The translations under genes and the position numbers were made by a program. A stretch of 64,000 nt of DNA from Vulcanimicrobiota bacterium (lineage in GTDB: Bacteria; Vulcanimicrobiota; Vulcanimicrobiia; Vulcanimicrobiales; Vulcanimicrobiaceae): assembly GCA_963723515.1 (NCBI GenBank), contig CAVRQT010000003.1, positions 1-64,000 on the forward strand, read 5' to 3'. The notes below the pieces were generated by a model that ran no database searches, was not told the origin of the DNA, and worked only from the letters and a program-made list of their open reading frames with translations. Below, piece after piece: positions 35,538 to 59,921 of this stretch; position 1 is the first letter of the stretch, and each line of letters starts with the position of its first letter.

Positions 35538-36810
35538 TTTCACACGACGTCGCGGCGAAGTCCGCAGACGACCTGTACGCGGAAGTGTACGAGGACTACC
35601 GGCGCTACGTGAATCCGCCGCTGGCGCGCGTGATGAAAGTCTCCGGATCGCCGGTTGAAGTTCGTGCCCAAGGAGCGACGATCTACGACCACAAGGGCAA
35701 AGCGTATTTGGATTTTGCGGGCGGATACGGTGTTTTCACGCTTGGCCACCGGCATCCGAAAGTCGTCGCCGCGGTTAAGGAGCAACTCGATCTGATGGCG
35801 CTCTCAGGCAAGACGATGTTCAACGCGGTGCTCGGCCGCGCCGCGCGCAAACTCGCCGAGTGCACGCCGGGCGATCTCCGAATTTCGTTCTTCTGCAACA
35901 GCGGTGCCGAAGCGGTCGAAGGCGCGATCAAACTGGCACGGGCGGCCACGAAACGTCACAAAGTCGTCGCAACGCAGAATGCGTTCCATGGCAAGACGCT
36001 TGGGGCGCTCAGCGCGAGCGGGCGCGAATACTTTCAGGAACAGTATCGTCCGCTGCTTGCGGATATCGAACATGTTCCGTACGGTGATCCCTCGGTCTTA
36101 AAAGGAGCGCTGCGTGACGCAGCGGCCTTCGTCGTCGAACCGGTGCAAGGCGAAGGCGGCGTGATCGTTCCGCCTGCCGGCTACTTGCGCGCCGTTCGTG
36201 AAGCATGCGATGCATCCGGGCGCGCTCTTCATCGCGGATGAAGTGCAGACCGGCCTTGGCCGCCTCGGGATGTGGTTCGGATGTGACCGCGACGGCGTGG
36301 TGCCTGACGTCATGACACTCGCGAAGGGACTCTCGGGCGGCGTCATGCCGGTTGGCGCCTACATCGCCCGTCTCGATTGTTGGAACGCCGCCTACGCCAA
36401 AGCGCCGCTCATGCATACTTCAACATTCGGCGGAAGCGAAATTGCATGCGCCGCCGTCATCGCCGCGCTCGAGGTATTGGAAGAAGACGGTCTTGTTGAA
36501 AATGCGCGACGAGCGCGGCACGCAGCTGCTTGCCGGGGCGCAAGAGCTTGCAGCAGAGTTTCCTGCCGTTGTCGGCGATGTCCGCGGTGTTGGTCTGCTG
36601 GTCGGCGTCGAATTGACGAATGAAGGGTACGGCGGCTGGATCATTCCGGAGATGCTCAAAGCCGGTGTGACGGCGGCATGGACGCTGAACCTGCAGCGCG
36701 TCATTCGGCTGGAACCGCCGCTGATCGTCACATCAAGGGAGGTGGAATGCGCGCTGGCGGCATTGCGCACCGGTCTGCAAACGGCTTATATGAAATTCGG
36801 CGCGCTCTAA
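35534..36810 (+). CDS. Class III aminotransferase (putrescine/acetylornithine-like), frameshifts ~36218 and ~36500
   Basis: NSGAEAVEGA, FHGKT, EPVQGEGG, DEVQTG, TLAKGLSGG. Confidence 0.9.
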
Positions 36811-41378: not shown

Positions 41379-42838
41379 ATGCATAAGAGCGAAGCGGCAC
41401 TCATAGCGGCCAGACGCACAAATCTGGCCGCTTTGCGTTCCCGAGGGCGCGATCCGTTCGCGCAGACGCGCTACGACGTCAATGCGCGCGCCGCCGACAT
41501 TCGCGAACGATGGGACGAGGGAACGCGCTACCGGTTAGCGGGCCGCGTCATGTCGAAACGCGGCACCGGCAAGACGCTCTTCGTCGATCTGCACGATCGC
41601 AGCGGCCGCATACAGCTCTACATTCGCAAAGACGAACTCGGCTGACGATCTCTTTGCGGATTGGGAGGATCTCGATCGCGGCGACTTCGTCGGCGTCGAC
41701 GGTTACATGTTTCGCACGCAAGAAGGGCGAGCCGACGTTGCACGTCGAGCGTTTTACCGTTCTCGGCAAAGCCTTCGCGCCGCTGCCGGACAAGTGGCAC
41801 GGTCTCGTCGACATCGAGAAGCGCTACCGCCAACGGTACGTCGACCTGATCGTCAATCCCGAGGTGCGCGACGTCTTCATCGCGCGCAGCCGCATCATCG
41901 GCGAAATCCGCCGCTTCTACGACGACCATGGCTTTCTCGAAGTCGAGACGCCGACGCTCTTGCATCTGGCCGGAGGTGCGGCGGCACGTCCCTTTGAGAC
42001 GCACTGCAAAGCGCTCGATCAGACGATGCAATTGCGGATCGCGACGGAGTTGAATTTGAAGCGTCTGATCGTCGGTGGCCTCGAGCGCGTCTACGAGATC
42101 GGCCACATCTTTCGCAACGAAGGCATCGATCGAACGCACAACCCCGAATTCACGATGCTCGAAGCCTACTGCGCGTACTGGTCGCTCGAAGAAATGCGCG
42201 AATTCGACGAAGCGCTCTACGCGCATCTCGTCTCGTTCGTAACCAACGGCAAGGACGAGCTCGAAGTCGGGGATCAGCGAATCTCCTTCCGCCGGCCGTT
42301 CGCGCGCCTGGCATACTTCGATGCGATGCAGCAGTTTGGTGGCTTGCGCCGAGAGCAGTTGCTCGATCCGCGCGGCGCGGCGAAAATCTTAGAAGACTTA
42401 GGATTATCCGAGTCGCCGTCGCATGGCCACGCGCTCGATAAGATCTTCGAGAAGATCGTCGAGCCGCATCTGGTTGCACCGACATTCGTCACCGATCAGC
42501 CGGCCGTGATCTCGCCGCTGGCAAAACGGCAACCTGCCGATGCGGACCTGGTCGAACGCTACGAGCTCTTCATCAAGAACATGGAGATCTCGAACGCCTT
42601 CTCGGAGTTGAACGATCCCGAAGATCAGCGCGCTCGCTTTGAAGCGCAGGCGCAGCAGCGCGCCGGCGGCGATGAAGAGATTCCCGAGCCGGATTGGGAT
42701 TACGTGCATGCGCTCGAATACGGCATGCCGCCGACGGCGGGCATTGGTATCGGAATCGATCGCCTCGTGATGCTGCTGACGGACAGCGCCTCGATCCGCG
42801 ATGTGATCCTCTTCCCGCTGCAGCGCCAGCACGGGTAA
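41379..42838 (+). CDS. lysS: Lysyl-tRNA synthetase class II, frameshifts ~41642 and ~41716
   Basis: PLPDKWHGL, YRQRYVDL, FRNEGID..HNPEFT, GMPPTAG.GIGIDRL. Confidence 0.95.
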
Positions 42839-43712: not shown

Positions 43713-44003
43713 GTGGATGAATTCACCGGCTTCGAATGGGACGATGATAAGAGTGGACGCACCTTCGATGAGCGGGGTATCGATTTCGAAGCCGCAGCGA
43801 GGATCTTCGACGGGCCATTCGTTGAGCGACAAGATTTGCGACGTGAGTACGGCGAGCCGCGTTTCATTACCATCGGCGAAGTCGACGGCGTTGTGATCAC
43901 CGTGGCGTGGACACCTCGAGAATCTATCCGCCGCATTATCTCAGCGTGGCCGGCATCCAGCCGAGAAAGACGAATGTATCGTGAGTACTGTCAGGAAGAA
44001 TAA
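43713..44003 (+). CDS. BrnT-family (DUF497) ribonuclease toxin
   Basis: FEWDDDK....RGIDF..A..IF, YGEPRFITIG, RIISA. Confidence 0.85.
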   Translation: MDEFTGFEWDDDKSGRTFDERGIDFEAAARIFDGPFVERQDLRREYGEPRFITIGEVDGVVITVAWTPRESIRRIISAWPASSRERRMYREYCQEE

Positions 44004-44319
44004 ATCCGAGATCGGCCGAGGACGCATCAATCGCCCTAAGGTGTTGATGGCAACCGAGAAGCAGATTGCTGCTTGGAAAAAACGAGATGACGTAGACGAT
44101 GCAGCGCTCGGCGTCCCAAATTGGGTGCCGGCCATTAGCGTTCAAGCCATTCGAGAGCAAATCGGATTGACGCAAGAAGAGTTCGCAACTCGATTCATGC
44201 TCTCATTGCGGACGATTCAAGAGTGGGAGCAAGGCCGACGTGAGCCATCTGAGGCGGCGCGTGTTTTGCTGTTTGCAATTTCACGAGCGCCGAAAGCGTT
44301 AGAACGAGCTCTGCGCTAG
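43981..44319 (+). CDS. HTH-XRE antitoxin (HigA/YiaG-like)
   Basis: IREQIGLTQEEFA....S.RTIQEWEQGRREPS; overlaps toxin. Confidence 0.85.
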   Translation: MSTVRKNKSEIGRGRINRPKVLMATEKQIAAWKKRDDVDDAALGVPNWVPAISVQAIREQIGLTQEEFATRFMLSLRTIQEWEQGRREPSEAARVLLFAISRAPKALERALR

Positions 44320-46219: not shown

Positions 46220-46284
46220 AGCACCCTCAATTTAGCAACAAGCAAGCCACTTCGTTGTCACCATGCGCGCCTATGATGGCGCGC

Positions 46285-46500
46285 ATGTTTGATCTTGCCC
46301 CCCAATTAGCGAGCGCGCTTCGCAAAAGCGCCGAACAACTGCAATCGACCGCGATGACGGCAGCCCGCGCGGAAACGAACGCCGGCGCGCCCGTTTCGAA
46401 TCAGGCCATGGCGTCGCTAGCGCGGGAGGCGATCTTCACTGAAACGCTCTTGAGCGCCATCCGATCGCGACTGCAAGAAATCAGGCTCGTGACCAAATGA
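46285..46500 (+). CDS. flgB: Highly reduced FlgB-like proximal rod protein
   Basis: 71 aa; C-terminal AMASLAREAIFTETLLSAIRSRL resembles the FlgB C-helix; first in cluster, overlapping flgC. Confidence 0.5.
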   Translation: MFDLAPQLASALRKSAEQLQSTAMTAARAETNAGAPVSNQAMASLAREAIFTETLLSAIRSRLQEIRLVTK

Positions 46501-46827
46501 ACGCGGACCTGCTCTCCATTGCGGCTCAAGGCATGGACGTGCAACGTGCCGCGCTCGATGTCGCGGCCAGAAATGTTGCCGCCGCTGAGGCTGCGGGCCC
46601 GAAGGGATCGTATGCGCGGTTGGTTCCACGCTTTCATCTCCTTCAGCGTGCCGGAAATACAGAGATCGCATTCGCCGGCGCGGCAACCGAACGTGGTTCA
46701 CACGTGGACATTCTCACGGAGATGGTGTCGGTCCTCAGAGCGTCGCGCGCGTTTGAGGCAAACGCATCCGTCTTCGATCTCGCAAAACGGCTCGCGGAAC
46801 GCACGATCGAGGTGGAGCGCGCAGTGA
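46497..46827 (+). CDS. flgC: FlgC-like rod protein (reads in frame into fliE)
   Basis: IAAQGMDVQRAALDVAARNVA; VDILTEMVSVLRASRAFEAN. Confidence 0.75.
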
Positions 46828-47093
46828 GGGTCGTTCCCTTACAGCCGGATATGCCGCAACCGGCAGTGCAGCAGACCGGGAGCACCGTTAACGCGTTTAC
46901 CGATGCCGTGAGCGCAATCGCCGGGTCGCTCGCGCGAGCCGAAAGCGCTGAAAACGCGTACGCGCTGGGAACGGGCACGTTGCAAAGCGCCGTGCTCGAA
47001 CGTGCGCGCGCCGATGTCGCACTTGCGGTTGCCGCGGCGGCAACTCAACGTACAGCGACCGCGGTGCAATCGATTCTGAACCTTCAGATCTAG
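46824..47093 (+). CDS. fliE: FliE-like protein
   Basis: AYALG...AVLERARADVAL......A.QSILNLQI FliE C-terminal pattern; GGTGGAG RBS before GTG. Confidence 0.7.
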   Translation: MRVVPLQPDMPQPAVQQTGSTVNAFTDAVSAIAGSLARAESAENAYALGTGTLQSAVLERARADVALAVAAAATQRTATAVQSILNLQI

Positions 47094-47096
47094 CCG

Positions 47097-48398
47097 ATGT
47101 CTTGGCCGAAGATGCTGCGAGCTTCGTTCGCTGCTCTCCCTCGGCCGGTAATCGTGATCGCCATTGCGGTTGCCGCCCTCAGCCTCATTGCGGCACTGTT
47201 CTTTTCGTTGCGTGGCGGTCAGGCCGCGCTCTTCGCCGGACCGGTGCATGCCGAACAGTTGGACGAAGTTGAGCAGCGCCTCGCGGAGTGGGACGTTCCT
47301 TTCACTCCCTTGGCCGACAATATCATGGTCAACTCAAGGCTGCGCAACGCACTTCTGCTGCGGCTTTCGCTCGCGGGCGTTCCGCACAGCCATATCGAGT
47401 CTTCGAGCGAGATGCTCACAAGAATCGGCGCTCTGACGCCGCAATCGATCGTCGATGAACAGCAGCGCAACGGGTTGGCAGCCGATCTCGAGCTGGCCTT
47501 GCGCGGGATCGACGGCGTCGATGATGCCACGGTGATCATCGCCCCGGCAAAGGCGGCGATCTATGCCGACGAGCATGCCCGCGATGCGACGGCCAGCGTA
47601 CGGCTTCACCTGCGCGCCGGCGCGCGGCTTCCGCCAAACGCCGTTGCGGGGATTCGTGCGTTCGTCGCGGCCGGTGTGCCCGACCTCGCGCCAAAGAACG
47701 TGACGATCGTTGACGACCGCGGTGTTGCGCTGCGCGACGAAATCGTCGATGCAGATCCGCAAGAGCTTCAGCCGGCGATTCAAAGCGCTCTGGATCAAAC
47801 ATTCGGCGCCGGCGTTTCCGTCGTACGCCTCGCGACATCGCCGGAGGGCGGAGGCTCGTCGTTAGGCCTTCGGCGCTCGATGCTTGTGCTCGTCGATCAG
47901 CGGCATGCGCCGCGTCTCGATGAAGTCAGTGCGGTTGCGTCGGCGGCCGGGGGCTTCGATTTTCGCCACGGCGATCGTCTTGACGTGGAGGCCGTGCACT
48001 TTGGAGAGACGACGCCGCATCGAAAGACAATTTGGCTCGCATTTTTGGGAAGCGCGTTGTCGATCGCACCCACGGTAATCGCGAGCGTCGCCTTGCTGAT
48101 CGGTTTACGGATCGGGATACGGCCTGCGGTAAGCATCCTCAAGACGATCGTTCGCAGCGCAACGATTGCGCGGACACAACGAACCACCCTAAGTCTTGCG
48201 CCGGCTCAGGTTCGCGGCGTGTTGCGCGGTGAGCCGCCGCACACCGCAGCCGCAATCATCAGCGCATTGCCCGCGGCAACGGCGGCCGCAGTCCTCGACA
48301 TGTATCCGGCCGAAGAACGCACCGCGATCATTCGCCGGATGTCGCGCGCGCAGTCCCCGCTGCTGCCGGACGTGGAGACGTTGATCTCGCATGCCTGA
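47097..48398 (+). CDS. fliF: Short FliF (MS-ring) fused to FliG middle domain
   Basis: TM1, LELALRGIDGV..A.V.I, TASV.L, V.AGVP.L...NVTIVDDRG, GFD..GD.L.V, TM2, then LRGEPPHTAAAIIS.LP...AA.VL (FliG EHPQ region). Confidence 0.8.
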   Translation: MSWPKMLRASFAALPRPVIVIAIAVAALSLIAALFFSLRGGQAALFAGPVHAEQLDEVEQRLAEWDVPFTPLADNIMVNSRLRNALLLRLSLAGVPHSHIESSSEMLTRIGALTPQSIVDEQQRNGLAADLELALRGIDGVDDATVIIAPAKAAIYADEHARDATASVRLHLRAGARLPPNAVAGIRAFVAAGVPDLAPKNVTIVDDRGVALRDEIVDADPQELQPAIQSALDQTFGAGVSVVRLATSPEGGGSSLGLRRSMLVLVDQRHAPRLDEVSAVASAAGGFDFRHGDRLDVEAVHFGETTPHRKTIWLAFLGSALSIAPTVIASVALLIGLRIGIRPAVSILKTIVRSATIARTQRTTLSLAPAQVRGVLRGEPPHTAAAIISALPAATAAAVLDMYPAEERTAIIRRMSRAQSPLLPDVETLISHA

Positions 48399-48861
48399 GT
48401 TTCGCACCCTCGTCGCCGTCCTTTCGAACGTCGAGGCGTCGCCGCAAGCAGCGCCTGAACCAGCGGTGATTTTCGATCCTACCGCTGCGACGGTCCCCGA
48501 AGCGATCGACATCGCGCTTAGCGATGCGCGGTTGATGCGTGCCCACTTGCGCGAGACGCTCGAAGAATCGTTCGACGATCTTCTGAGGGACATTGCGAGC
48601 GATGTCGTTGGTCGTGAGCTGCAGCTGCAACCGGTCGAGATCAAGCAGATCATCGTCGCCGCCATCGATCGGTACAGAGCCGAAATGCCGCTGCGCACAC
48701 GAGTTCATCCCGATGATGTGGCGGCGCTGAGAGATCTGGCCATCGACGTTGTTCCGGACGGCGCTCTAAAACGTGGTGACGCGTTTTTGGAGCTGCGCGA
48801 TGGAGCCGTCGATCTGAGTCTTGGCATCAGATTGGAGCGCTTGCTCGAAGCACGGGCGTGA
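48391..48861 (+). CDS. fliH: FliH/SctL-like stator protein (short)
   Basis: IA..VVGREL, RVHPDD, D.ALKRGD......GAVD. Confidence 0.75.
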   Translation: MPEFRTLVAVLSNVEASPQAAPEPAVIFDPTAATVPEAIDIALSDARLMRAHLRETLEESFDDLLRDIASDVVGRELQLQPVEIKQIIVAAIDRYRAEMPLRTRVHPDDVAALRDLAIDVVPDGALKRGDAFLELRDGAVDLSLGIRLERLLEARA

Positions 48862-50096
48862 AAGGCGAGAGCATCGGCCGTGTTTGCGATGCGCGGGCGG
48901 GCGTCGTTCAAGCAAAGTTGCCCGCGGTTTCGATCGGTGAGAGCGTCGAAATTCTGAGCCGCCGGCGCACGACTCTTGGAATCGTGCAGCGCGTCGGTGA
49001 GCGCGCCGTTTCGATTGCCTCGCATGGCGATGTGGAAGGCATCTCGGCCGGGGACGTCGTGCGCGCCTTACCTTACGGAAATGTTCGAGCGCCGGGCTTA
49101 GCCGCATTGGGACGCGCAATCGACGCGCGCGGACAGGCGATCGACGGTGGCCCGCCGGTGGTTTCTCGGCGTGGGGCCCGGATGAGAATTCGTCCATCGC
49201 CGTCGGCGCGAACGTTGCCGACCGCGCCGCTTTGGACCGGCATCAAAGCGATCGATGCGCTGTTGACGATTGCGCGCGGCGGAAGAGTCGGCATCTTCGG
49301 TCCGGCCGGTGCCGGCAAATCATCATTGCTCGCAATGTTAGACCGCGGTTGCCGTGCTGATGTGTCGGTCGTTGCGCTGATCGGCGAACGAGGGCGCGAA
49401 GCGCGCGAGTGGTTCGCGCGGTTGCATCCGCGCATGACCGTCATCTGCGCGGCGAGCGATCGCCCTGCGGCCGAACGTGTAACGGCCGCCGAATTGGCCA
49501 TTGCGCAAGCCGCACGTCTGCGTGGGCTCGGACTGGATGTCTTGCTGATTCTCGATAGCCTTGCCCGCCTTGGGGCGGCGTTGCGCGACGTTGCCGTTGC
49601 TTGCGGTGAGCCGGTCGGGCGCGCAGGTTTTCCGCCGAGCGTTTTCGCTCAAATTGCCCGCTTCGTTGAGTCGGCTGGAGCAACGGCAACCGGTTCAATA
49701 ACGCTCGTTGCGAGCGTGCTGAGCGAGGACGATCGAGAACCGATCGCGGAGGCCGCGCGATCGCTGCTTGACGGCCACATCACTTTGTCGCGTTCGCTCG
49801 CCCACGCGGGACGTTATCCCGCCATCGACGTGACATCGAGCGCCAGCCGCTTGATGTCCGCGGTGATATCGCAAACGCATGCTGAAGATGCCGCGACGCT
49901 GCGGCGGAGCCTCTGCGCCCTCAAGGACTCTGAAGACGCGCGCTCGATCGGACTGCCGCAACACGATCCGTGGATCCTTGCCGCGCAGCAGAACGAAGAG
50001 GCCATCGAGGAGCTGCTCCGGCAAGGAGTCGAACCGGTGGCGGCTGCCCTCACGTTACGCGACCTCCATATGCTCGCACAGCAGCTTCAACCCTAG
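48858..50096 (+). CDS. fliI: Type III export ATPase FliI/SctN
   Basis: TGIKAID, GPAGAGKS Walker A, IGERGRE, LLILDS Walker B, LDGHI.LSR, YPAID...S.SRLM. Confidence 0.92.
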   Translation: MKGESIGRVCDARAGVVQAKLPAVSIGESVEILSRRRTTLGIVQRVGERAVSIASHGDVEGISAGDVVRALPYGNVRAPGLAALGRAIDARGQAIDGGPPVVSRRGARMRIRPSPSARTLPTAPLWTGIKAIDALLTIARGGRVGIFGPAGAGKSSLLAMLDRGCRADVSVVALIGERGREAREWFARLHPRMTVICAASDRPAAERVTAAELAIAQAARLRGLGLDVLLILDSLARLGAALRDVAVACGEPVGRAGFPPSVFAQIARFVESAGATATGSITLVASVLSEDDREPIAEAARSLLDGHITLSRSLAHAGRYPAIDVTSSASRLMSAVISQTHAEDAATLRRSLCALKDSEDARSIGLPQHDPWILAAQQNEEAIEELLRQGVEPVAAALTLRDLHMLAQQLQP

Positions 50097-50126: not shown

Positions 50127-51695
50127 ATGTCGATAGTGACGCTGAGCATCTTAACGCTGGCCGCAGTCTGCGCGATCGCCGACGTGTCGCCGGCCGCCCA
50201 ACCGCGCGACGCCGCGCAAGTCTTGCAGTTATACCGTCGCGCGGTCGCGCCGACGGGTGCGTCGCCTCCGGCGGTTTGGCAGGCGCGAGGAACACTCAGT
50301 GGAGCGAATCTCGTCGGGACGTTTGCGTCGTGGCATGACGCCGAACACGATCGGCTCGATCAGGATCTCGGGGTGCGGCGCGAACGCACGTTGCGAATCG
50401 GCGAGCGCGTCTACGTCCAGAACAGCAGCGGAGATGTGATCGAGCTCAAAGGCCTGCTGCTGCGCCGTTCCCATACGCAAGACTTCATCGGCTCGAGCGA
50501 TCTCTTTCGACAGCCGCAATTTTCACGCTATCTCGGCCGTACAACGCTTTCGGACGGCCGCGATGTCTTTGCGCTTCAGGTGTCGCCGCCCAACGGCGAA
50601 ACGGAGACAATCGACGTCGATGCGCGCACGCATCTGCTCGACCGTTTAGAGTACATCGACGGCGACGGTCTCTTCACGATCGATTTCTCGGATTACCGGC
50701 CGGTCGACGGGTTTATGTTTGCATTTAGAGAGGTTCAGTCCGACGGCGACCATCCATACGACGTGACGCAAACGATGACGCAAATCAATGCCGGCACACC
50801 GATTTCAGCGCCCATTTTTGCACCATTGCAGCCGGCACGGCTGCAAGCATCTGGACCGGTGACGGTCCCATTGACCGAACGCAACGGCGGGCTCTATGCG
50901 GACGTCTCGATATTCGGACACAGCTTTTCTTTTTTGGTCGACAGCGGTGCGCAAGGGATTGTCGTGGACGCCAAAGCCGCGGCCTCGTTGCTGCTGGTGC
51001 CGCAAGGCTCGTTTGAAGCGCGCGGCGCGACTCGCAGCGGCGGAATCGGCGTTGCGCCACTGGACCACCTGATGATCGGCGGCGCGAAATTGCCCGTCGG
51101 CGTCGTTTCAATCCTCGACCTGGGCGCCTCTACGGCGGGACGCTTCCCGATCGACGGGATTTTGGGCTTTCCGCTTTTTGGCGCCGGCGTCGTCACGCTC
51201 GATGCGGCACACGCCACGATGACGATTTCACCACCTGGAACCCGGAGTGTTACGGGAGAGCCGTTTGAAATCGACGTCGATCGAGAACTTCCCGAGGTCG
51301 TCGCCAGCGTCAACGGTGTACAGGGACGCTTTCTGCTAGACACCGGCAACGGGAATGAACTGTTGTTGTTCCGCAATTTTCTTGAGGAACATCGCGGCGT
51401 ATTGCAGTTCAACCCGACCGGTTCGGTCGGAAGTTATGGCGTCGGCGGCGGCACGCGGGCCTATGCAACCGACGTCGATGAGCTTGACCTCGGATCATAT
51501 CGACTCTTTCACGCCAACACGAACGTGATGCTTTCGACCGAAGGTGCATTCGCGGATCGTTTTGATGCCGGCAACATCGGCCTTGGTGTACTGAAGAACT
51601 TCGTGGTGACGTTTGACGTACCGAATCGGATGCTCTATCTTGCGCCTGGCGCGAACTTCGATGACGGCCGGGGCCGGCGCGTGTTTCGGCAATAA
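50127..51695 (+). CDS. Secreted aspartyl protease with two retropepsin-like domains
   Basis: Signal peptide; FLVDSGA..DGILG and FLLDTGN..GNIG. Confidence 0.85.
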   Translation: MSIVTLSILTLAAVCAIADVSPAAQPRDAAQVLQLYRRAVAPTGASPPAVWQARGTLSGANLVGTFASWHDAEHDRLDQDLGVRRERTLRIGERVYVQNSSGDVIELKGLLLRRSHTQDFIGSSDLFRQPQFSRYLGRTTLSDGRDVFALQVSPPNGETETIDVDARTHLLDRLEYIDGDGLFTIDFSDYRPVDGFMFAFREVQSDGDHPYDVTQTMTQINAGTPISAPIFAPLQPARLQASGPVTVPLTERNGGLYADVSIFGHSFSFLVDSGAQGIVVDAKAAASLLLVPQGSFEARGATRSGGIGVAPLDHLMIGGAKLPVGVVSILDLGASTAGRFPIDGILGFPLFGAGVVTLDAAHATMTISPPGTRSVTGEPFEIDVDRELPEVVASVNGVQGRFLLDTGNGNELLLFRNFLEEHRGVLQFNPTGSVGSYGVGGGTRAYATDVDELDLGSYRLFHANTNVMLSTEGAFADRFDAGNIGLGVLKNFVVTFDVPNRMLYLAPGANFDDGRGRRVFRQ

Positions 51696-51740
51696 CCTCG
51701 TTATCGATCGACCATTTTCGCGGCTTATGCTATGCGCGCA

Positions 51741-52277
51741 ATGGACCGAACGCTCTGTGTCCTCAGCGTCCCGATTCAAACCTGCGATCGGCGAGCGCTT
51801 TCCGAAGCATGGTACGGCGCGCTGCACGCTGCGCAACCAGCGGCCGCGTCAGGAACAACTCTAAGACTTAAGACCGGCGGCGTTGCCGATGTGCCGAAGC
51901 GACGCTTCATCGAGTTCACAGCGCGCCAAAACAGCGCCGCTCGAGGTGGTGTCTCGCGACAAACATCAACCGCGCGCCGTTTCACGTCGCTGGAAGGGCA
52001 AGCCGCGTTTGCTTCGCGGAGATCTTCGCTTGCACGGCGGATCGAGCGCACGTTTTTGAAAGCGGCTCATCCAGCACGCCAGTCCACGTTCACGCTTGAA
52101 GATGGGCGCACGCGAGTGCACGTCATGTTGCGCCGGCTGGGCCGAAGCGTACACCTCGTTGCGCTTTGCACCGCTGCCGCTCGCCTTCCGGTCGCTCAGG
52201 CACTCGCCGAGATTCAACGCCGGCTTCGAGCGCGCGGAGTTGATTTACGCACCGCTCTAACGCAGCAGGTCGTTTGA
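51741..52277 (+). CDS. Putative short FliK-like (length control/substrate switch) protein
   Basis: C-terminal RVHVMLRR.G.SVHLVA.C..AAR..VAQALAEIQRRL.ARGV resembles the FliK_C/T3S4 domain; syntenic position. Confidence 0.5.
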   Translation: MDRTLCVLSVPIQTCDRRALSEAWYGALHAAQPAAASGTTLRLKTGGVADVPKRRFIEFTARQNSAARGGVSRQTSTARRFTSLEGQAAFASRRSSLARRIERTFLKAAHPARQSTFTLEDGRTRVHVMLRRLGRSVHLVALCTAAARLPVAQALAEIQRRLRARGVDLRTALTQQVV

Positions 52278-52993
52278 TGATCGTTTCATCGGCGACGGCG
52301 CAAGCACTGGAGAAGATCACGGAGCGTGAATCTGAGTTGCGCGCGGCGTTTACTCCCGGCGCACAGCCGACCCACCCGGAAATTACGGCGGCGCCGTCAG
52401 TTGAAGCGGATCGCTCGCCCCTCAGCGTCGCACCGGACGGAAACGCATATTTCGTCGTTCGCGATCCGAATGGCGGCGAGGCGTTTACTCGAGACGGCGT
52501 CTTTCACATCGACGGTGCAGCGCTCGTCGATCGAGACGGCACGCCGGTGCTTGGTTTTCAGCGTGGCGGCGCGCTGAGGCCGTTGCGGCTCGATCCGATC
52601 GACAGCGCACTGGGACGCATACGAAATGTTCGCATCGAAAACGACGGCGCGCTCACGTACGAAAAGAGTGCGATCGACCCGGTGACGCGCCAACCGCAGC
52701 GCGTCAAGATTGTTGCCGGCCGTTTGGCCTTGGCGCGTTTCTCGGCTGCCACGCGGCTCGAGCCGATCGGCGACACGTACTTGCGCGCGCCTGCCGGCAT
52801 ACCACCGCACGTTGGAACGCCCGCTGATGGAAATTTTCTCCCGCTGATTACACATGCGCATTTGCGCAGCGGCATCGACCTGCTGACGGGCATCGATCGG
52901 CTACAGGAATCGTACATGGCGTTTGACGCATTGCGCGCCGCCCATTCAGCGGAAGGGCGAACCGAGAAAATCGCGATGGATTTGCTGAAGTGA
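52274..52993 (+). CDS. FlgE/FlgF/FlgG-family hook/rod protein (short)
   Basis: GNAYFVV....GEAFTRDG.F..DG.LV..DG.PVLG; C-terminal SGIDL..helix. Confidence 0.8.
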   Translation: MMIVSSATAQALEKITERESELRAAFTPGAQPTHPEITAAPSVEADRSPLSVAPDGNAYFVVRDPNGGEAFTRDGVFHIDGAALVDRDGTPVLGFQRGGALRPLRLDPIDSALGRIRNVRIENDGALTYEKSAIDPVTRQPQRVKIVAGRLALARFSAATRLEPIGDTYLRAPAGIPPHVGTPADGNFLPLITHAHLRSGIDLLTGIDRLQESYMAFDALRAAHSAEGRTEKIAMDLLK

Positions 52994-53781
52994 TTCGAAC
53001 GCTCGCCTTTGCACCGGAATGCGAAATGCTCGGCGGACGACAAATTCGCCGCGCACGCTTCGAGCGCCGTTCGTCTTTGCCGATAGCGGCTGCGTGCCTG
53101 ATCGCCAACGGAATTCGCGAGACGCTTGCGATGCTCGTTGCGAAGGCGGTTCGCGTGCGACTGATGGAGCCGGTCTGTCCCGACCCGGACCTCTGGCCGG
53201 TCCTTGTCAATGATGCCCGTCTCTACCAAGTGCGCGGAACGCTGAACACCGCGACCTTCGTCTTAGGCAGCACCGATGCGATCGGGCTCACGCGAATGCT
53301 GTTCGGTGCAAGCGAGCAAACCGAAGACCGCCTTTCGCGAATTGAAGAGCACGTCTTAGGCCGCATGATCGAAGCGCTTGCCGCAACGCTCGCGCCGGTG
53401 TGCGGGAAGACGGTTGAAATCGCCGCCCCCGGCCGCGAGCTGCCGGGTTGGCTAACGTTTCTTGACGTGCTCATCGAGGAGCCCGTGTCGTTGCGCCTCG
53501 GCATCGCGCTGACTCGCGATACGTTCGAAGCGCCGGCGCCGCTCTTTCGAGCGGAACATCTGCTCGATGTGCGGTTGCACTTGACCGCACAGACGAGGGA
53601 AACGGAAATCGATTCGTCTCGGTTAATGCGCCTGGAGGCGGGCGCAGTCGTGCCGCTCGGCGCGCAACGAGAGGGGTGCGATCGCCTCAAGATGGGCGAT
53701 CGAACGGTCGCCGTTGGAACGTGCGGCGCGCACGGCGATTCCCGTGCTTTCTCGGTCAGCAAACTTCTGTCGGCAGCATGA
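52990..53781 (+). CDS. fliM: Divergent FliM-like C-ring protein
   Basis: LSRIEEHVL middle-domain motif; C-terminal SpoA-like LMRLEAGAVVPL..GTCG; precedes fliN. Confidence 0.6.
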   Translation: MIRTLAFAPECEMLGGRQIRRARFERRSSLPIAAACLIANGIRETLAMLVAKAVRVRLMEPVCPDPDLWPVLVNDARLYQVRGTLNTATFVLGSTDAIGLTRMLFGASEQTEDRLSRIEEHVLGRMIEALAATLAPVCGKTVEIAAPGRELPGWLTFLDVLIEEPVSLRLGIALTRDTFEAPAPLFRAEHLLDVRLHLTAQTRETEIDSSRLMRLEAGAVVPLGAQREGCDRLKMGDRTVAVGTCGAHGDSRAFSVSKLLSAA

Positions 53782-54080
53782 ATCCGCAGGGGTTTACGGC
53801 TGCCGAAGATCCGGAGCCGCCAAACCTGACATTGCTGATGAATGTCGCGCTGCAGATCTGCGCGCAACTCGGAACGTGCACGTTGACTGTCCGTGAGGTG
53901 CTCTCGATGGGCGCGGGATCGATCGTCGAGCTCGATCGGGGATGTACCGATCCCGTCGAGTTGATCGTCAACGGAAAGCGCGTTGCACGGGGCGAGATCG
54001 TCGCCGTTGAGGAGAAGCTTGGCGTGCGCATTACCGAACTGATTGCCCTTCGACAGGCTCAGGATGACACGGCGCCGTGA
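53778..54080 (+). CDS. fliN: FliN C-ring protein
   Basis: GSIVELDR...PVELIVNGKRVARGEIVAV...GVRITE. Confidence 0.9.
   Translation: MNPQGFTAAEDPEPPNLTLLMNVALQICAQLGTCTLTVREVLSMGAGSIVELDRGCTDPVELIVNGKRVARGEIVAVEEKLGVRITELIALRQAQDDTAP
54046..54069. repeat. REP-like half element inside the fliN 3' end
   Basis: cccttcgacaggctcaggatgaca. Confidence 0.8.
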
Positions 54081-54733
54081 GGGAATGGCTCGCGCTCGCA
54101 CAGCACGCTCATGCAGCACTGCCGCTCGATATTCTGGGCGGCTTGCTTTTGATCGGCATCGCGCCGTTCATCTTGGTGATGTCGACGTCGTTTGTCAGGA
54201 TCGTCGTCGTGCTCTCGCTCGTGCGCTCCGCGATCGGTGCCGCCGCGCTTCCGCCGAATACCGTTCTAACGGGCCTAGCACTGATTCTGACGCTGGTGAT
54301 CATGTCACCGACGCTGAATGCAATTTCAAAGCACGCCGTCGAGCCGTACACGCGCGGACGGCTCTCGCAAGGCGCCTTTCTCGAACGTGCCGCGACGCCG
54401 CTGCGCGCCTTCATGCTGCGGCAGACGCGCGCCGACGACATTGCTCTCTTCTCGCGTGTGGCACATCGTTCGCGTGAACCGGCGGCACAAACGCCCACGT
54501 TCGTTTTGGTTCCCGCGTTCGTCGTCGGGGAACTGAGAAGCGCCTTTGCAATCGGCTTCGCGCTCTATCTTCCGTTCGTTGCGATTGACCTAGCCGTGGC
54601 GTCGATCCTGATGGGCTTGGGCATGTTCATGTTGAGCCCGCCCGTCATCTCGTTGCCGGCGAAGTTATTGTTGTTCGTGATGGTTGACGGTTGGGCGCTC
54701 GTTTGCGGAGGCGTCGTTTCCAGCTTCCGCTAA
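54077..54733 (+). CDS. fliP: Export gate FliP/SctR
   Basis: TSFVRIVVVL, PPNTVL.GLAL, PAF...EL, MGLGMFML.P..ISLP.KLLLFV.VDGW. Confidence 0.92.
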   Translation: MREWLALAQHAHAALPLDILGGLLLIGIAPFILVMSTSFVRIVVVLSLVRSAIGAAALPPNTVLTGLALILTLVIMSPTLNAISKHAVEPYTRGRLSQGAFLERAATPLRAFMLRQTRADDIALFSRVAHRSREPAAQTPTFVLVPAFVVGELRSAFAIGFALYLPFVAIDLAVASILMGLGMFMLSPPVISLPAKLLLFVMVDGWALVCGGVVSSFR

Positions 54734-54750: not shown

Positions 54751-55656
54751 ATGCGAATCGATCTCGCGCTAGCGACGCGCCGTCCGTTCTTTTCCTTCGA
54801 ATTCTTTCCGCCGAAAAGCGACGACGGACAGGAGCAGCTTTTTCGCGCGATTGAGACGCTGTGCACGCTGCATCCATCCTTCGTTTCAGTCACCTACGGA
54901 GCGGGAGGATCGACCCGCGCCCGCACGACGACGCTCACCAAGCAAATCCAAAACGAAATCGGACTCGCGGCGATGGCGCACATCACGTGCGTTGGGCACT
55001 CGCGCCGTGAACTGCGTGAGATCTTTTACGATCTCGAGCAAGCCGGCATCGAAAACGTTCTCGCTCTACGCGGCGACCCGCCGCGCGGTCAGGCGTTCCA
55101 GATGAGCGCTGACGGCTTCTCGTACGCCTCTGAGCTTACCGCGATGCTTGCGCGGGACTTTAATTTTACGGTCGGCGGCGCGGCATATCCGGAGAAGCAC
55201 CTGGAAGCAAAGACGCTTGACGCCGATCTGCAACACCTTGCGTTGAAGGTGCGCGCCGGGGCGAAGTTCTTGATCACGCAACTCTTCTTTGACAACGAAT
55301 ACTACTTCTCGTTTGTCAAGCGCGCCCGCGCGATCGGCATCACCGTACCAATCTTGCCCGGCATCATGCCGATTACGAACTTCGAGCAGATCTCGCGCTT
55401 CACCGCGATGTGCGGCGCAACGATTCCACCGAAGTTGTATGCGGAGTTGCTTGCCCGTGCCGATCAGCCTGATGCGGTCAAAGAGCTCGGCGTCTCCTAC
55501 GCCACGTTGCAGTGCCAGGACTTGCTCGCGCGGGGAGCGCCGGGCATTCATTTTTATACATTGAACAAATCCCCGGCCACGCGCGCCGTCGTTTCCGCGC
55601 TGCTCGCTGCCAGCGCGTGGCAGCCGATGCCGCAGACGAAGTTTCAAGCGCTCTAG
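54751..55656 (+). CDS. metF: 5,10-methylenetetrahydrofolate reductase
   Basis: SFEFFPPK, SVTYGAGGS, LALRGDPP, YPEKH, ITQLFFD, HFYTLN. Confidence 0.95.
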   Translation: MRIDLALATRRPFFSFEFFPPKSDDGQEQLFRAIETLCTLHPSFVSVTYGAGGSTRARTTTLTKQIQNEIGLAAMAHITCVGHSRRELREIFYDLEQAGIENVLALRGDPPRGQAFQMSADGFSYASELTAMLARDFNFTVGGAAYPEKHLEAKTLDADLQHLALKVRAGAKFLITQLFFDNEYYFSFVKRARAIGITVPILPGIMPITNFEQISRFTAMCGATIPPKLYAELLARADQPDAVKELGVSYATLQCQDLLARGAPGIHFYTLNKSPATRAVVSALLAASAWQPMPQTKFQAL

Positions 55657-55868: not shown

Positions 55869-56138
55869 ATGGATGTCTTCGATCGGCTGCTCCGCGAGTC
55901 TCTCGTCGTCGCGGCGTTGCTCTGCTTGCCCGTGTTGATCGCTGCAACCGCGGTGGGAACGGCCGTAGCGCTGCTGCAAGCCGCGACGCAAGTACAAGAG
56001 CAAACCTTATCACTGCTTCCCAAACTCCTGGTTGTCGGCGTGGCGATTGCACTCTTCGGCGGATTTGGGATGCATCTGTGCGCTGCGCTCTTCGTTGAAG
56101 CGATCGCGCAGCTTGCGCAGATCGTGCACGGCGTTTGA
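55869..56138 (+). CDS. fliQ: Export gate FliQ/SctS
   Basis: LQAATQVQEQTLSLLPK. Confidence 0.9.
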   Translation: MDVFDRLLRESLVVAALLCLPVLIAATAVGTAVALLQAATQVQEQTLSLLPKLLVVGVAIALFGGFGMHLCAALFVEAIAQLAQIVHGV

Positions 56139-56851
56139 ATGCGACGGCGCTCCTCGTCTTTGCACGCTGTGCCGGTTTCGTCTTTAAAGCGCCCGGCTTC
56201 TCGCATCCGAGCGTTCCGCCGCCGGTGCGCGCGGGATTGGCGCTCGTTCTCGCGATTGGTCTGCAACCGGCAACCGCTCATGCTGGATCCGCCTTCGGCC
56301 TGCCGTTCGTCTTTGGGATGGTTAGCGAGTTTGCGATCGGCGCCGCAATCGGCATAGCGACAGCGGTCCTCTACGACGGCGCGTATGCCGCTGGTCGCGT
56401 ACTGGACGATTACGTTGGAATTCGCGGCAGCGTGCCTTCAGCGGCATTTTTTGCGTCGAGCGGCTTCGGACGAGTTTGGTCCCTGACGTTTCTCGCCGGG
56501 TTCTTCTTGCTGCGCGGTTACGATCCGATCTTGCGCATCCTCGCGGACGGCTTTAACCGCCTGCCGCCGGGCGCTGCGTTACATCAAACGGGTTTTCAGC
56601 TTTTGGCCATCTCGTTGCCCGCGCTGATGCTCAAAGCTGCGCTCTTCATCGCCGGTCCCGCGATTGCACTCGTGTTCGTCGCGCAATGTGCTTTGGGAAC
56701 GCTCTCGCGCGCAATTCCGCGGTTCGCGAGCTTCACGCTCTCGTTTCCCATCAACTTCGCGGGCGTGCTGATCGTCACGCTGATTATGGTCCCGCTACTG
56801 CTTCATACCGGCGGCCGCCCGTGGATCTTTCTGCCCTTTCTTAGGCGATGA
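56135..56851 (+). CDS. fliR: Export gate FliR/SctT
   Basis: FAR......AP.F....VP..VR, E..IG, AG..LD, LG.LSRAIP; between fliQ and flhB. Confidence 0.85.
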   Translation: MNATALLVFARCAGFVFKAPGFSHPSVPPPVRAGLALVLAIGLQPATAHAGSAFGLPFVFGMVSEFAIGAAIGIATAVLYDGAYAAGRVLDDYVGIRGSVPSAAFFASSGFGRVWSLTFLAGFFLLRGYDPILRILADGFNRLPPGAALHQTGFQLLAISLPALMLKAALFIAGPAIALVFVAQCALGTLSRAIPRFASFTLSFPINFAGVLIVTLIMVPLLLHTGGRPWIFLPFLRR

Positions 56852-57870
56852 GCGAACCGAGCGGGGAACGGCAATTTGAGGCCAGCGCCGCACGCTTACG
56901 TAAAGCCCGAGAGGAAGGTGACGTACCACGCTCGGCCGATCTCTGCGGCGCGCTCGCCTTCGCCGCGGCGACTTTGGCAATCGCCGCCGGCATGCCGTGG
57001 GTCGTAACGTCCGCTGAGGCTTCGATTCGGGAGGCGGCGCTGCAGCGGCGACTCGATTTCGCCTTGCTGATTTGCCTCCTCGCATCGGCGATGCTCTTGC
57101 CGCTCGCTTCAGGCGCCTGCGGCGCAATTGCCGCCGGCGTCTTGCAGACCGGTGGTTTGCAATTGCGAATGCCGCGGCTCTCGTTCACCCGGCTCAATCC
57201 AAGTGACGGATGCAAGCGCATCTTTTCGCGGGACACGTTCTTGACGATGTTGCGCGGTGCGATTGCCCTCAGCGGAATCCTCGCCGTTCTTGTGCTTACT
57301 TCCATTCGCGTCGTCGTTCAGGCGGCTGGTTCTTCAGAACCCGCCGCACTTGGCGGAGCAACATGGAATGGAGCGCTTTGCGTCGCGATTGCGGGCGCAG
57401 CATTTGCGGTTCTCTTTGGCGCGGTCGATTTCATCACGATGGTGAGGCGGTGGCGCGGACGTTTGCGTATGACGCTCGCGGAATTCAAGCGCGATCAAAA
57501 GGAGACTGAAGGGGATCCGCTGCTGCGCAGCCGGCGCCGCTCCGCGCAACGACAATCTTCCCGTTTAGCGGTGCAGCGAGTTGCAGATGCGGCATTCGTT
57601 GTCGTCAATCCGACGCACATCGCGATCGCTTTGGAATATCGGCCACCCGATGTTGCGGTGCCGCGCGTGTTGATTCGCGCCGCCGGCGAGGCGGCAATGC
57701 GCGTTCGGGCGGAGGCTGTCGCGCAGCAAATTCCGATCGTTGAGGATACGGCGCTTGCACGCGCGCTTTACACAACGACCGAAGTCGGCCAGCCGGTTCC
57801 GCTCGAACTCTACATCGCCGTGGCGGCGATCGTCGTTGCGCTTTCGCGCGCGAGCGCGATTTCCAAATGA
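56848..57870 (+). CDS. flhB: Export switch protein FlhB/SctU
   Basis: RLRKAREEGDVPRS, LRMT..E.K...KETEGDP, intact NPTH autocleavage motif. Confidence 0.92.
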   Translation: MSEPSGERQFEASAARLRKAREEGDVPRSADLCGALAFAAATLAIAAGMPWVVTSAEASIREAALQRRLDFALLICLLASAMLLPLASGACGAIAAGVLQTGGLQLRMPRLSFTRLNPSDGCKRIFSRDTFLTMLRGAIALSGILAVLVLTSIRVVVQAAGSSEPAALGGATWNGALCVAIAGAAFAVLFGAVDFITMVRRWRGRLRMTLAEFKRDQKETEGDPLLRSRRRSAQRQSSRLAVQRVADAAFVVVNPTHIAIALEYRPPDVAVPRVLIRAAGEAAMRVRAEAVAQQIPIVEDTALARALYTTTEVGQPVPLELYIAVAAIVVALSRASAISK

Positions 57871-59921
57871 AACGCTGGCCAACGTACGGCCTTGCGGCGG
57901 CGGTCCTTTCTATCGTCTTCATGCTGATCGTCCCGCTTCCGTCCGAGCTGCTGGACGCGCTTCTCGCGTTGAACATTCTTGGCTGTGCGCTGGTCTTGCT
58001 TATGAGCGTCACGATTACGGAACCGCTGGAATTCTCAACGTTTGCGCCGGCCCTGTTAATTGCGACGCTCTTCCGGCTGGCGCTGGATGTCAGCGCGACG
58101 CGCTTGATCCTGACGCAGGGCCACCTCGCGGGCGGAGCCGGCGCGATCATCCCGACCTTTGGACAGTTCGTCGTCCGCGGCAATTTGGTCGTCGGCCTGA
58201 TCGTCTTTACGATCCTCGTAACAATTCAATTCATCGTCATCGCACAAGGCTCGCAGCGGATCGCCGAGGTCGCGGCCCGCTTTACGCTCGATGCAATGCC
58301 AGGCAAGCAGATGGCCATCGACGCTGAGGTGCATGCCGGCGTTATCGAGGCGGAAAACGCGCGCATGAAGCGCGCGCTGGTGCAGAAGGAGGCAGATTTC
58401 TACGGCGCCATGGACGGCGCCGGCAAATTCGTCAAAGGCGACGCGATCGCGGCGCTGGTCATAGTCGTTTTGAACCTGATCGGTGGTTTGATCGTCGGAA
58501 TCGGCTACCATGGGCTCTCGCCCGCCGACGCACTCAATACGTTCGCGTTGCTTTCAATCGGAAACGCGCTCGTGACGACGCTGCCGGCATTTCTGATGTC
58601 GATCGCGATGGGCATGATGGTCACGCGCGTTTCGGCCGGCGGATCGCTCGGCTTCGATCTCTCGCAACAGGTCTTTGCAAGACCGGACCTCTTGCGTGCG
58701 GCAGCGTGCTTGATTTTCGTGCTGGCGATCGTGCCGGGTTTGCCGCGACCGCTGTTTCTGATTTTAGGCATGTGCGCGATGGGCGCCGCGCAACTTCTGC
58801 TCCGCATGCATGCTGCCAACGACGCGGCCGAAAAAGAGGCCAAGGAACGCGCCCGACGCAGCGCCATTCGAAGGCCGGAGATGGCGCTTTCGCTCGTCGG
58901 CGTCGACGCGGTTTGCATTGAGTTCGGTCATGCGTTGACGCCGCTGCTCGCGTCACCCGCGTGCGAGCAGTTGCTCGATCGAATCGGTGAAGTTCGCCGC
59001 GCGCTCGCCGCCGATATCGGCGTCGTCCTGCCCGGCGTGCGTCTGCGCGATAATCCCGCCGACGATGCGGACGGCTACGTCATTCGCATTCGCGAGGAGC
59101 GCGTCGCGCAGGGCCGATTACAGCTCGATGCCCTCCTTGCGGTCTGCGAACATGCACGCATAAGGCACCTGGACGGAATGCAAACCTCGGAACCGGTGTA
59201 CGGCTTGCCGGCGAAGTGGATTTCGGCACGGGATCGGGACGCGGCAATTTCCGCCGGAGCGCTCGTCTTCGATCCCATCTCCGTTTTAGGCTCTCATTTG
59301 GCGGAAGTTGCTCGCGAGCACGCCGATGCGCTGCTCGGGCGTCAGGAGTTGCAAACGTTGCTGGAGCATCTGCGCACGATCGTGCCGGCGCTGATAAAAG
59401 AAGTCGGAACGGATAACTTGCCGCTGGCGACGCTGCATCGGGTCTTCACCTTGCTGCTTCGGGAGCGGATCTGGCCCCGCGATCCGAGCGCTGCGCTCGA
59501 AGCGATCGTCGATGCCGCAGCGACTTCACGCGACGCACGAGAGATTGCGGAACGCGCTCGTGCTGCAATCGTTCCGTCGCTCCTGCGCCGCAGCGAAACA
59601 GCGTCATTGGAAGCGATGATCTTCGCACCGCCATTGGAACGCGAGCTGACCGAAGCGTGGATTCCATCCGTTGATGGACCAACCGCCGCACCCGATCCCT
59701 CGGTTGCTATGCGGCTGCGGGAGTTTGCGCTTCGATTTGCGGCGAGCGTCCCGCGCGAACGCTCGGCAGCGGTATGCGGAAGCCGCCTGCGACCGATGCT
59801 TGCGGATTTCTTCTTGCGCGCGGGAATCGCGCTGCCCGTCTTTTCTTATAACGAGCTTCCAACCAATATCGAACTTCTGCCGCGCGCGCTCTTTGGCGCT
59901 GAACCCGCCTTAGCTTCTTAA
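57867..59921 (+). CDS. flhA: Export apparatus FlhA/SctV
   Basis: RIAEVAARFTLDAMPGKQMAID, EADFYGAMDGAGKFVKGDAIA, FSYNEL. Confidence 0.95.
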   Translation: MKRWPTYGLAAAVLSIVFMLIVPLPSELLDALLALNILGCALVLLMSVTITEPLEFSTFAPALLIATLFRLALDVSATRLILTQGHLAGGAGAIIPTFGQFVVRGNLVVGLIVFTILVTIQFIVIAQGSQRIAEVAARFTLDAMPGKQMAIDAEVHAGVIEAENARMKRALVQKEADFYGAMDGAGKFVKGDAIAALVIVVLNLIGGLIVGIGYHGLSPADALNTFALLSIGNALVTTLPAFLMSIAMGMMVTRVSAGGSLGFDLSQQVFARPDLLRAAACLIFVLAIVPGLPRPLFLILGMCAMGAAQLLLRMHAANDAAEKEAKERARRSAIRRPEMALSLVGVDAVCIEFGHALTPLLASPACEQLLDRIGEVRRALAADIGVVLPGVRLRDNPADDADGYVIRIREERVAQGRLQLDALLAVCEHARIRHLDGMQTSEPVYGLPAKWISARDRDAAISAGALVFDPISVLGSHLAEVAREHADALLGRQELQTLLEHLRTIVPALIKEVGTDNLPLATLHRVFTLLLRERIWPRDPSAALEAIVDAAATSRDAREIAERARAAIVPSLLRRSETASLEAMIFAPPLERELTEAWIPSVDGPTAAPDPSVAMRLREFALRFAASVPRERSAAVCGSRLRPMLADFFLRAGIALPVFSYNELPTNIELLPRALFGAEPALAS

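Follow-up and report, generated by a model that had tools for sequence, protein, structure and literature searches.

Does an open reading frame that carries the ring protein FliF directly into part of FliG encode a natural protein and, if so, does the machine built around it rotate? In the window (the whole stretch of DNA analysed, 64 kb in length), this question is raised by a 433-aa ORF on the forward strand (47097–48398), a fusion of FliF with helix NM and the middle domain of FliG. The ORF lies in a cluster with the gene order FlgB-like, FlgC, FliE, fusion, FliH, FliI, aspartyl protease and FliK-like, continuing with FlgF/G-like, FliM-like, FliN, FliP, metF, FliQ, FliR, FlhB and FlhA. The following features were assigned:

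46255–46500, forward: putative minimal FlgB-like rod protein, from its position and a graded alignment to FlgB (no Pfam match)
46497–47093, forward: FlgC (about 46497–46820) and FliE (about 46824–47093) in a single open frame (Pfam/NCBIfam)
47097–48398, forward: FliF-FliG fusion, with TM1, RBM1-3, TM2, a long helix, ARM-M and the short helix MC
48195–48398, forward: FliG-M tail of the fusion (EPPH motif at residues 379–382)
48391–48861, forward: short FliH (Pfam)
48858–50096, forward: FliI export ATPase (Walker A GPAGAGKS intact)
51732–52277, forward: FliK/SctP-like protein in the fliK position, a lead only (Atlas features 0.93 and 0.91 to HpaP/SctP clusters)
52274–52993, forward: single FlgF/G-like rod protein with a D1 domain (about 240 aa, below the length of hook FlgE)
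52990–53781, forward: reduced FliM with a CheC-like middle and an SPOA fold, without the N-terminal CheY-binding peptide and without GGxG
53676–54080, forward: FliN
54077–54733, forward: FliP
55869–56138, forward: FliQ
56135–56851, forward: FliR
56848–57870, forward: FlhB (NPTH cleavage motif intact)
57867–59921, forward: FlhA

Several hallmarks of a rotary flagellum are present: the gate (FliPQR-FlhB-FlhA) with its FliH/FliI ATPase, the MS ring supplied by the FliF part of the fusion protein, and the rod components FliE, FlgB and FlgC, FlgB being recognised solely by position and alignment. Four rod-type genes are found in the cluster. The NPTH motif of FlhB, the Walker A motif of FliI and the conserved motifs of FlhA are all intact, and the cluster proteins score below most of the curated NCBIfam cut-offs. 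The FliK-like assignment derives from a single embedding search, and the comparison of this family with the FliK of the sister classes by hhalign provided no support (probability 0.2). No secretin or outer-membrane ring gene was found among the scanned cluster ORFs, nor did any ORF of the cluster stand out as a candidate for the needle SctF or a translocon. A metF gene (54751–55656) separates fliP from fliQ in the window and is present in 78 of 80 cluster loci, and 42 of the 80 have the double aspartyl-protease gene that lies 3′ of fliI in the window (50127–51695). In relatives, a lytic transglycosylase gene is also found 3′ of fliI (52/80 loci); it is not in the window, and the top match (59%) is found on a different contig of the same genome (G000:C2 736527–736907). 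FlgC and FliE share a stop-free frame in just three of 47 other loci, so their shared frame probably reflects either a minor variant or a single-base error in the assembly. Two other genes of the window are split in a manner that suggests assembly indel errors: an aminotransferase class III gene over three overlapping ORFs (35534–36810) and a class II aminoacyl-tRNA synthetase gene over two (41379–42838). A BrnT-type toxin and HTH antitoxin pair (43713–44319), upstream of rplM-rpsI, adjoins the cluster.

In the flagellum, FliG-N co-folds with the FliF tail and the torque helix sits in FliG-C, as described in PMC7355467. The initial annotation proposed that the fliF ORF runs in frame into FliG-M, that fliH overlaps its stop and that no torque domain is present, and all three proposals were borne out. 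Pfam identified YscJ_FliF at residues 51–212 (E 2.4e-22) and FliG_M at residues 369–418 (37.7 bits, against a cut-off of 25; E 2.4e-9), with no match to FliG_N or FliG_C on the 433-aa ORF, and the fliH start codon (ATG, 48391) overlaps the stop codon of the fusion (TGA, 48396–48398) by 8 nt. The last 67 codons (48195–48398), translated as LAPAQVRGVLRGEPPHTAAAIISALPAATAAAVLDMYPAEERTAIIRRMSRAQSPLLPDVETLISHA followed by the stop, were correctly attributed to FliG-M, but the FliG-derived part begins earlier than was then supposed. TIGR00207 aligns residues 339–417 of the fusion with residues 90–168 of FliG, and in an AlphaFold2 model based on 94 sequences (pLDDT 87.4, pTM 0.55) residues 344–428 superpose on residues 92–173 of Aquifex FliG (Z 8.5, rmsd 3.0, 81 aligned); these alignments place the join directly after TM2, at about residue 339–344. 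The model comprises TM1, three ring-building motifs, a TM2 that continues as a single long helix (310–364), an ARM bundle (369–415) and a final helix (426–432). When the whole model is aligned by structure, the FliF part dominates. For the modelled tail, FliG-M matches in five structure entries have middling scores (Z 7.2–8.5) and MgtE-N also matches (Z 6.0–6.3), so the identification as FliG-M depends on sequence too: the Pfam E value for MgtE_N is 0.013, far from that of FliG_M, and nine of ten PDB sequence matches are FliG chains, among them T. maritima FliG-M, in which EHPQ aligns with EPPH and KRIA with RRMS. The protein thus has neither the cytoplasmic tail of FliF nor FliG-N, and its chain ends in helix MC. 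The β-collar insert of FliF is absent from nine of 94 fusion sequences, a single sub-lineage that includes this one.

Because reading frames are broken elsewhere on the contig, other assemblies were checked for the same fusion. A search for homologues returned 1080 sequences, and YscJ_FliF and FliG_M occur together in 118 of the 120 listed (query included), FliG_N and FliG_C in none of these 120; the source names were Eremiobacteraeota, Baltobacter, Cybelea, Tumulicola and Vulcanimicrobiaceae. In a sample of 151 genomes of the phylum Vulcanimicrobiota (at least 85% complete; samples of MAGs, in which kin are not independent), the fusion was found in 88 of the 94 genomes of this class of soil bacteria. 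These carriers, one of which is an unpublished genome (G048), comprise 83 with a single near full-length match, three with two pieces in one open frame and two cut by a contig end. Likewise, 52 of 80 named loci found via FliP reach the fusion gene, and in 46 of the 52 the ring and the tail occupy one stop-free frame; of the other six, two run off the end of the locus and four have frame breaks. The tail ends 43–63 residues past the motif glutamate in all 94 fusion proteins, as opposed to 209 residues in canonical FliG, and the junction is identical in three families (the tail row of L037, in the wrong frame, was left out of the tail comparison). In a profile search of 1.84 billion representatives, the matches among the best 150 that span ring and tail all scored at least 358 bits, and the lower full-length matches stopped at or before profile position 420; fusions weaker than these 150 would rank below that list. 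One DNA read run (share 0.05) yielded short pieces only, none spanning the junction. The recurrence of the fusion across other assemblies rules out an assembly artefact. The fusion is thereby confirmed as genuine, and natural, as had been proposed.

The genome of this contig (hereafter referred to as G000) is 88% complete. Searches with tblastn, based on the canonical flagellar proteins of relatives, found no FliG, FliC, FlgK, FlgL, FlgI, hook FlgE, MotA, MotB, FliK or FliO in G000; three queries with full FliG gave no match, the family searches agreed, and no FliG_C match exceeded the cut-off anywhere in this genome. The parts of a rotary flagellum not found in G000 are, then, the FliG C domain with its torque helix, MotA/MotB, and the hook, junction and flagellin (FlgE, FlgK, FlgL and FliC). 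FliJ and FliO were found neither in G000, FliJ being the weakest tblastn case (E 0.001, outside the cluster), nor in the 80 cluster loci, which also lacked matches to FliG, FliC, FlgK/L, FlgI and MotA/B. As the MotA_N profile is insensitive (13/61), MotB_plug was used instead. Flagellin scored above the cut-off in 31 of the 94 genomes, MotB in 31 and full FliG in 32; the set with full FliG coincides with the genomes that have flagellin or MotB, and each of these 32 carries the fusion too. A complete fliG elsewhere, which the initial annotation held would count against its reading, is therefore present in 32 of the 88 carriers, but there it is part of an additional flagellum of the ordinary kind, encoded in a separate fliF-fliG-fliH-fliI-fliJ operon, and the fusion is kept beside it. 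The other 56 carriers, G000 included, have no match to flagellin, MotB or full FliG. In one family (f3), all 10 genomes have the fusion and none has a match to flagellin, MotB or full FliG. Three genomes (G013, G095 and G127; 96–100% complete) have neither an FlhA nor a FliF match, indicating that the machine can be lost. These results support a natural, conserved fusion without a torque domain, most carriers of which have no stator or filament genes.

In other classes of the phylum, the same operon occurs with FliF and FliG unfused, and this type of FliG was found in 54 of 57 genomes. The order is flgB flgC fliE fliF fliG fliH fliI fliJ slt fliK flgG-like fliM fliN fliO fliPQR flhB flhA, complete in G062 and G111 and partial in seven more. 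Flagellin was not found in 35 of these 54 genomes, and 32 had neither flagellin nor any MotB match. The torque-helix arginine (located against T. maritima SKRAA), which we take to be R281 in E. coli numbering, is replaced by D or E in all 27 unfused-type FliG sequences (Glu 17, Asp 10), which came from 26 of the 54 genomes, whereas it is kept as R in 22 of 23 flagellar FliG sequences, the single miss being a row (L165) with an apparently misread C-terminal part. The second torque arginine (R297) is R or K in none of the 27 unfused-type sequences versus 18 of the 23 flagellar ones, and is a weaker marker, with Pro in five of 13 flagellar FliG of other classes. In G114 (C41, 9207–11717), a tandem pair of unfused, torque-dead fliG genes was observed.

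The initial annotation took the fusion to be the strongest sign that the machine does not rotate. This claim did not hold, because the sister FliG is unfused yet has already lost the torque arginine, in a group of genomes most of which (32/54) have neither flagellin nor MotB. Nor does fusion as such point to non-rotation: Salmonella strains with a FliF-FliG fusion are reported to be motile (PMC7355467). It is the loss of FliG-C, not fusion, that matters for non-rotation. Torque was likely lost first and the fusion likely came after, given that the unfused sister FliG sequences already have D or E at this position.

In an FlhA tree of 34 rows, 14 fusion-type and nine unfused-type sequences formed a single clade (100/100) on long branches, separate from four SctV rows. 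The flagellar FlhA of this same class adjoins that clade with weak support (85/89), the frameshifted flagellar FlhA sequences of G010 and G006 having been left out. A grouping of the fusion type with the class's own flagellar FlhA, chosen for testing after the first tree had been seen, was rejected (p-AU 2.5e-5). The tree for FliI and FliP also separated fusion, sister and flagellar groups, without resolving the branching order among them. A profile of the fusion tail gave a median of 31.7 bits for sister FliG, versus 22.3 and 24.0 for flagellar FliG, and the FliM of both reduced types is devoid of the N-terminal CheY-binding peptide present in two flagellar rows. The likely order of events is a duplication, the loss of stator contact and chemotactic input, the fusion, and finally the loss of the FliF collar in one sub-lineage; the fusion step likely included deletion of FliG-N and FliG-C, and FliJ and FliO were likely lost in this class. 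Additional FlhA-family genes, with up to 10 matches per genome, were observed in G062, G074, G090 and G111 of the other classes (L100–L111). Many consist of the cytoplasmic domain alone, and some are fused to HTH, ankyrin repeats or a FliG_N-like piece; they may regulate the same machine or serve it as adaptors.

We infer from sequences and models that the fusion probably forms the membrane ring of a type III export machine that derives from the flagellum and does not rotate, with its tail as a putative FliM/FliN adaptor; the cluster likely builds a non-spinning export machine because it is kept where motor and filament genes were not found. A single deletion may have joined TM2 to helix NM of FliG, with truncation following helix MC, in an operon whose FliG would already have lost its torque charges. 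The tail would hang FliM/FliN, and thereby FliH/FliI, beneath the gate, which would export FliE-FlgB-FlgC-FlgG-like subunits to form a short rod across the wall. The lytic transglycosylase encoded in the cluster of relatives would fit the passage of such a rod through the wall, and a FliK-like ruler and FlhB might then switch export to late, non-filament substrates; no substrate candidate was found. Against this model stand the lack of FliJ and FliO matches and, the cells being diderm, the lack of an outer-membrane ring or secretin gene among the scanned ORFs of the cluster. With FliF and FliG covalently linked, the pairing of the FliF tail with FliG-N would no longer be needed and, in the absence of stators, nor would FliG-C. 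The remaining part of FliG would be what an export machine needs to hold FliM/FliN and the ATPase under its gate.

An alternative that we consider rather unlikely is that the non-rotating machine exports nothing other than its own short rod and serves as a static scaffold or conduit spanning the envelope (a cell-cell junction, a nanotube-like platform or a means of reshaping the envelope) instead of secreting other proteins. Near-universal vertical inheritance in the class, with tree nesting that follows kinship, would fit such a cell-biological role, as would the lack of any candidate secretin, needle or effector gene among the cluster ORFs, the transglycosylase and aspartyl protease of many loci, and the presence of housekeeping genes such as metF inside the cluster; a nanotube role has been published for flagellar export genes (PMC6456723). 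However, the NPTH motif of FlhB and the FliK-like gene suggest a substrate switch, and the three nearly complete genomes with neither FlhA nor FliF show the machine to be dispensable.

The adaptor step of the export model depends on the contact between FliG-M and FliM, which uses the EHPQR and GGxG motifs (PMC7355467). The EHPQ motif that the initial annotation named for FliG-M is not found in the tail: the motif reads EPPH in this protein and in 70 of the 94 fusion proteins, and EHPQ in none. GGxG is lost in 27 of 29 aligned FliM-like rows, which have FGE-like residues instead, a GGxG-like sequence remaining in two. These changes count against the adaptor step and, together with a shortened FliM middle domain, would fit a tail that no longer binds FliM and has been retained because it helps to pack the ring or serves another partner, the C ring being attached in some other way. 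We nevertheless judge this improbable, because the motif glutamate is invariant (94/94), R414, which matches the arginine of T. maritima KRIA, is kept in 84 of 94, the reduced FliM still folds like FliM, and no other FliG-like adaptor was found in G000. Retention of C-ring anchoring by the FliG-M tail is accordingly putative.

It is very improbable that the ring still rotates, whether through a stator that engages some other part or through use of the ordinary flagellum's FliG and MotAB. Full FliG is indeed present in 32 of the 88 carriers, laboratory FliF-FliG fusions do rotate (PMC7355467), and one 1.9-Mb genome (G123; C18, C62) has two copies of the fusion, full FliG and MotB, with no flagellin match. 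However, the other 56 carriers have neither flagellin, MotB nor full FliG, the laboratory fusions retain FliG-C (PMC7355467), and the FliF tail to which a free FliG would bind is deleted in the fusion. Least credible of all is an assembly artefact or a decaying relic of a lost flagellum, which would be in keeping with the other frame breaks on the contig (such as the aminotransferase in three ORFs), the low NCBIfam scores and the long branches, but not with 1080 homologues, one junction in three families, intact catalytic motifs and a fusion kept beside intact flagella.

A FliF-FliG fusion has been published for the Chlamydiaceae (Bergeron 2016, PMC4768692), so the FliF-FliG-M architecture was already known. 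As described there, the cytosolic tail of FliF is likewise replaced by the FliG middle domain alone, in a non-flagellated host, and a FliM/FliN homologue is the proposed partner. The chlamydial protein differs in being about 330 aa long, in having lost part of the SctJ region and RBM3, and in its setting, a handful of orphan flagellar genes accompanying an injectisome (PMC4768692), whereas the Vulcanimicrobiota fusion retains RBM1-3 and is encoded in a complete operon together with a gate, a rod and FliM/FliN of its own. The chlamydial family NF004606 exceeded its cut-off in none of 21 genomes and had no match in G000. The existence of unfused sister orthologues points to an origin independent of the chlamydial fusion, in trees composed of non-chlamydial sequences. 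The Salmonella laboratory deletion fusion resembles the natural one in that most of FliG-N is removed and, according to PMC7355467, the C ring is still built; it differs in keeping FliG-C and motility. In the ESM Atlas, Planctomycetota-dominated fusion clusters also combine YscJ_FliF and FliG_M in one chain, but often keep FliG_C (31–94% of members). The FliF-FliG-M architecture thus recurs across lineages.

The cluster as a whole resembles the bacterial flagellum in its gene order, flgB-flgC-fliE-fliF-fliG-fliH-fliI-(fliJ)-fliK-rod-fliM-fliN-(fliO)-fliPQR-flhB-flhA, and in an FlhA that groups with flagellar sequences rather than with SctV (four SctV rows only). Unlike the flagellum, it has no matches to FliG-N/C, stator, hook, junction, filament or P-ring proteins, and its FliM lacks the CheY-binding peptide. 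It differs from injectisomes in the presence of flgB, flgC and fliE, the absence of which is used as a criterion for those systems in PMC3459982. The secretin-less or “needleless” T3SS of Myxococcales is similar in being an export core of flagellar origin that lacks both a secretin and the parts for motility (PMC3459982, PMC12075869), but has been assigned a basal position in the injectisome tree (PMC3459982), our tree being composed of sequences other than those of Myxococcota; moreover, the present system retains flgB, flgC and fliE, which that study treats as flagellum-specific (PMC3459982). Within the phylum, the cultured Vulcanimicrobium WC8-2 is described in PMC9758169 as having no flagella and no flagellin, yet a fliN (WPS_28550) is listed in Table S8, in keeping with a machine independent of motility. 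TXSScan identified putative T3SS and flagellar genes in marine members, the available part of that report containing no description of this system (PMC9259500), and the main text of PMC12248157 does not mention the phylum. No published description of a phylum-wide machine with graded intermediates was found in a search of sources outside subscription journals; the fusion architecture is known, and the phylum-wide system and its intermediates appear to be undescribed.

The main interest of this locus lies in the system and its intermediates, above the fusion alone. We lean slightly towards the view that it represents a third lineage of type III machines, one that diverged from the flagellum at the base of Vulcanimicrobiota, independently of the injectisome, and was vertically inherited by nearly all members, with the steps of its exaptation surviving in living genomes. 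If this is true, those steps would run from a stator-free operon with a torque-dead full FliG, through the FliF-FliG-M fusion and the loss of FliJ and FliO, to the loss of the FliF collar. Arguments on how a motor becomes a secretion device usually draw on a single event, the injectisome; this would apparently be an independent second case, with living intermediates. The end point shared with Chlamydia suggests that FliG-M is the minimal piece for hanging a C ring under the gate, and the system offers a natural way to tell the parts of FliG that serve export from those that serve torque. Genome screens will miscall these bacteria as flagellated, in a phylum that has a cultured, non-flagellated member.
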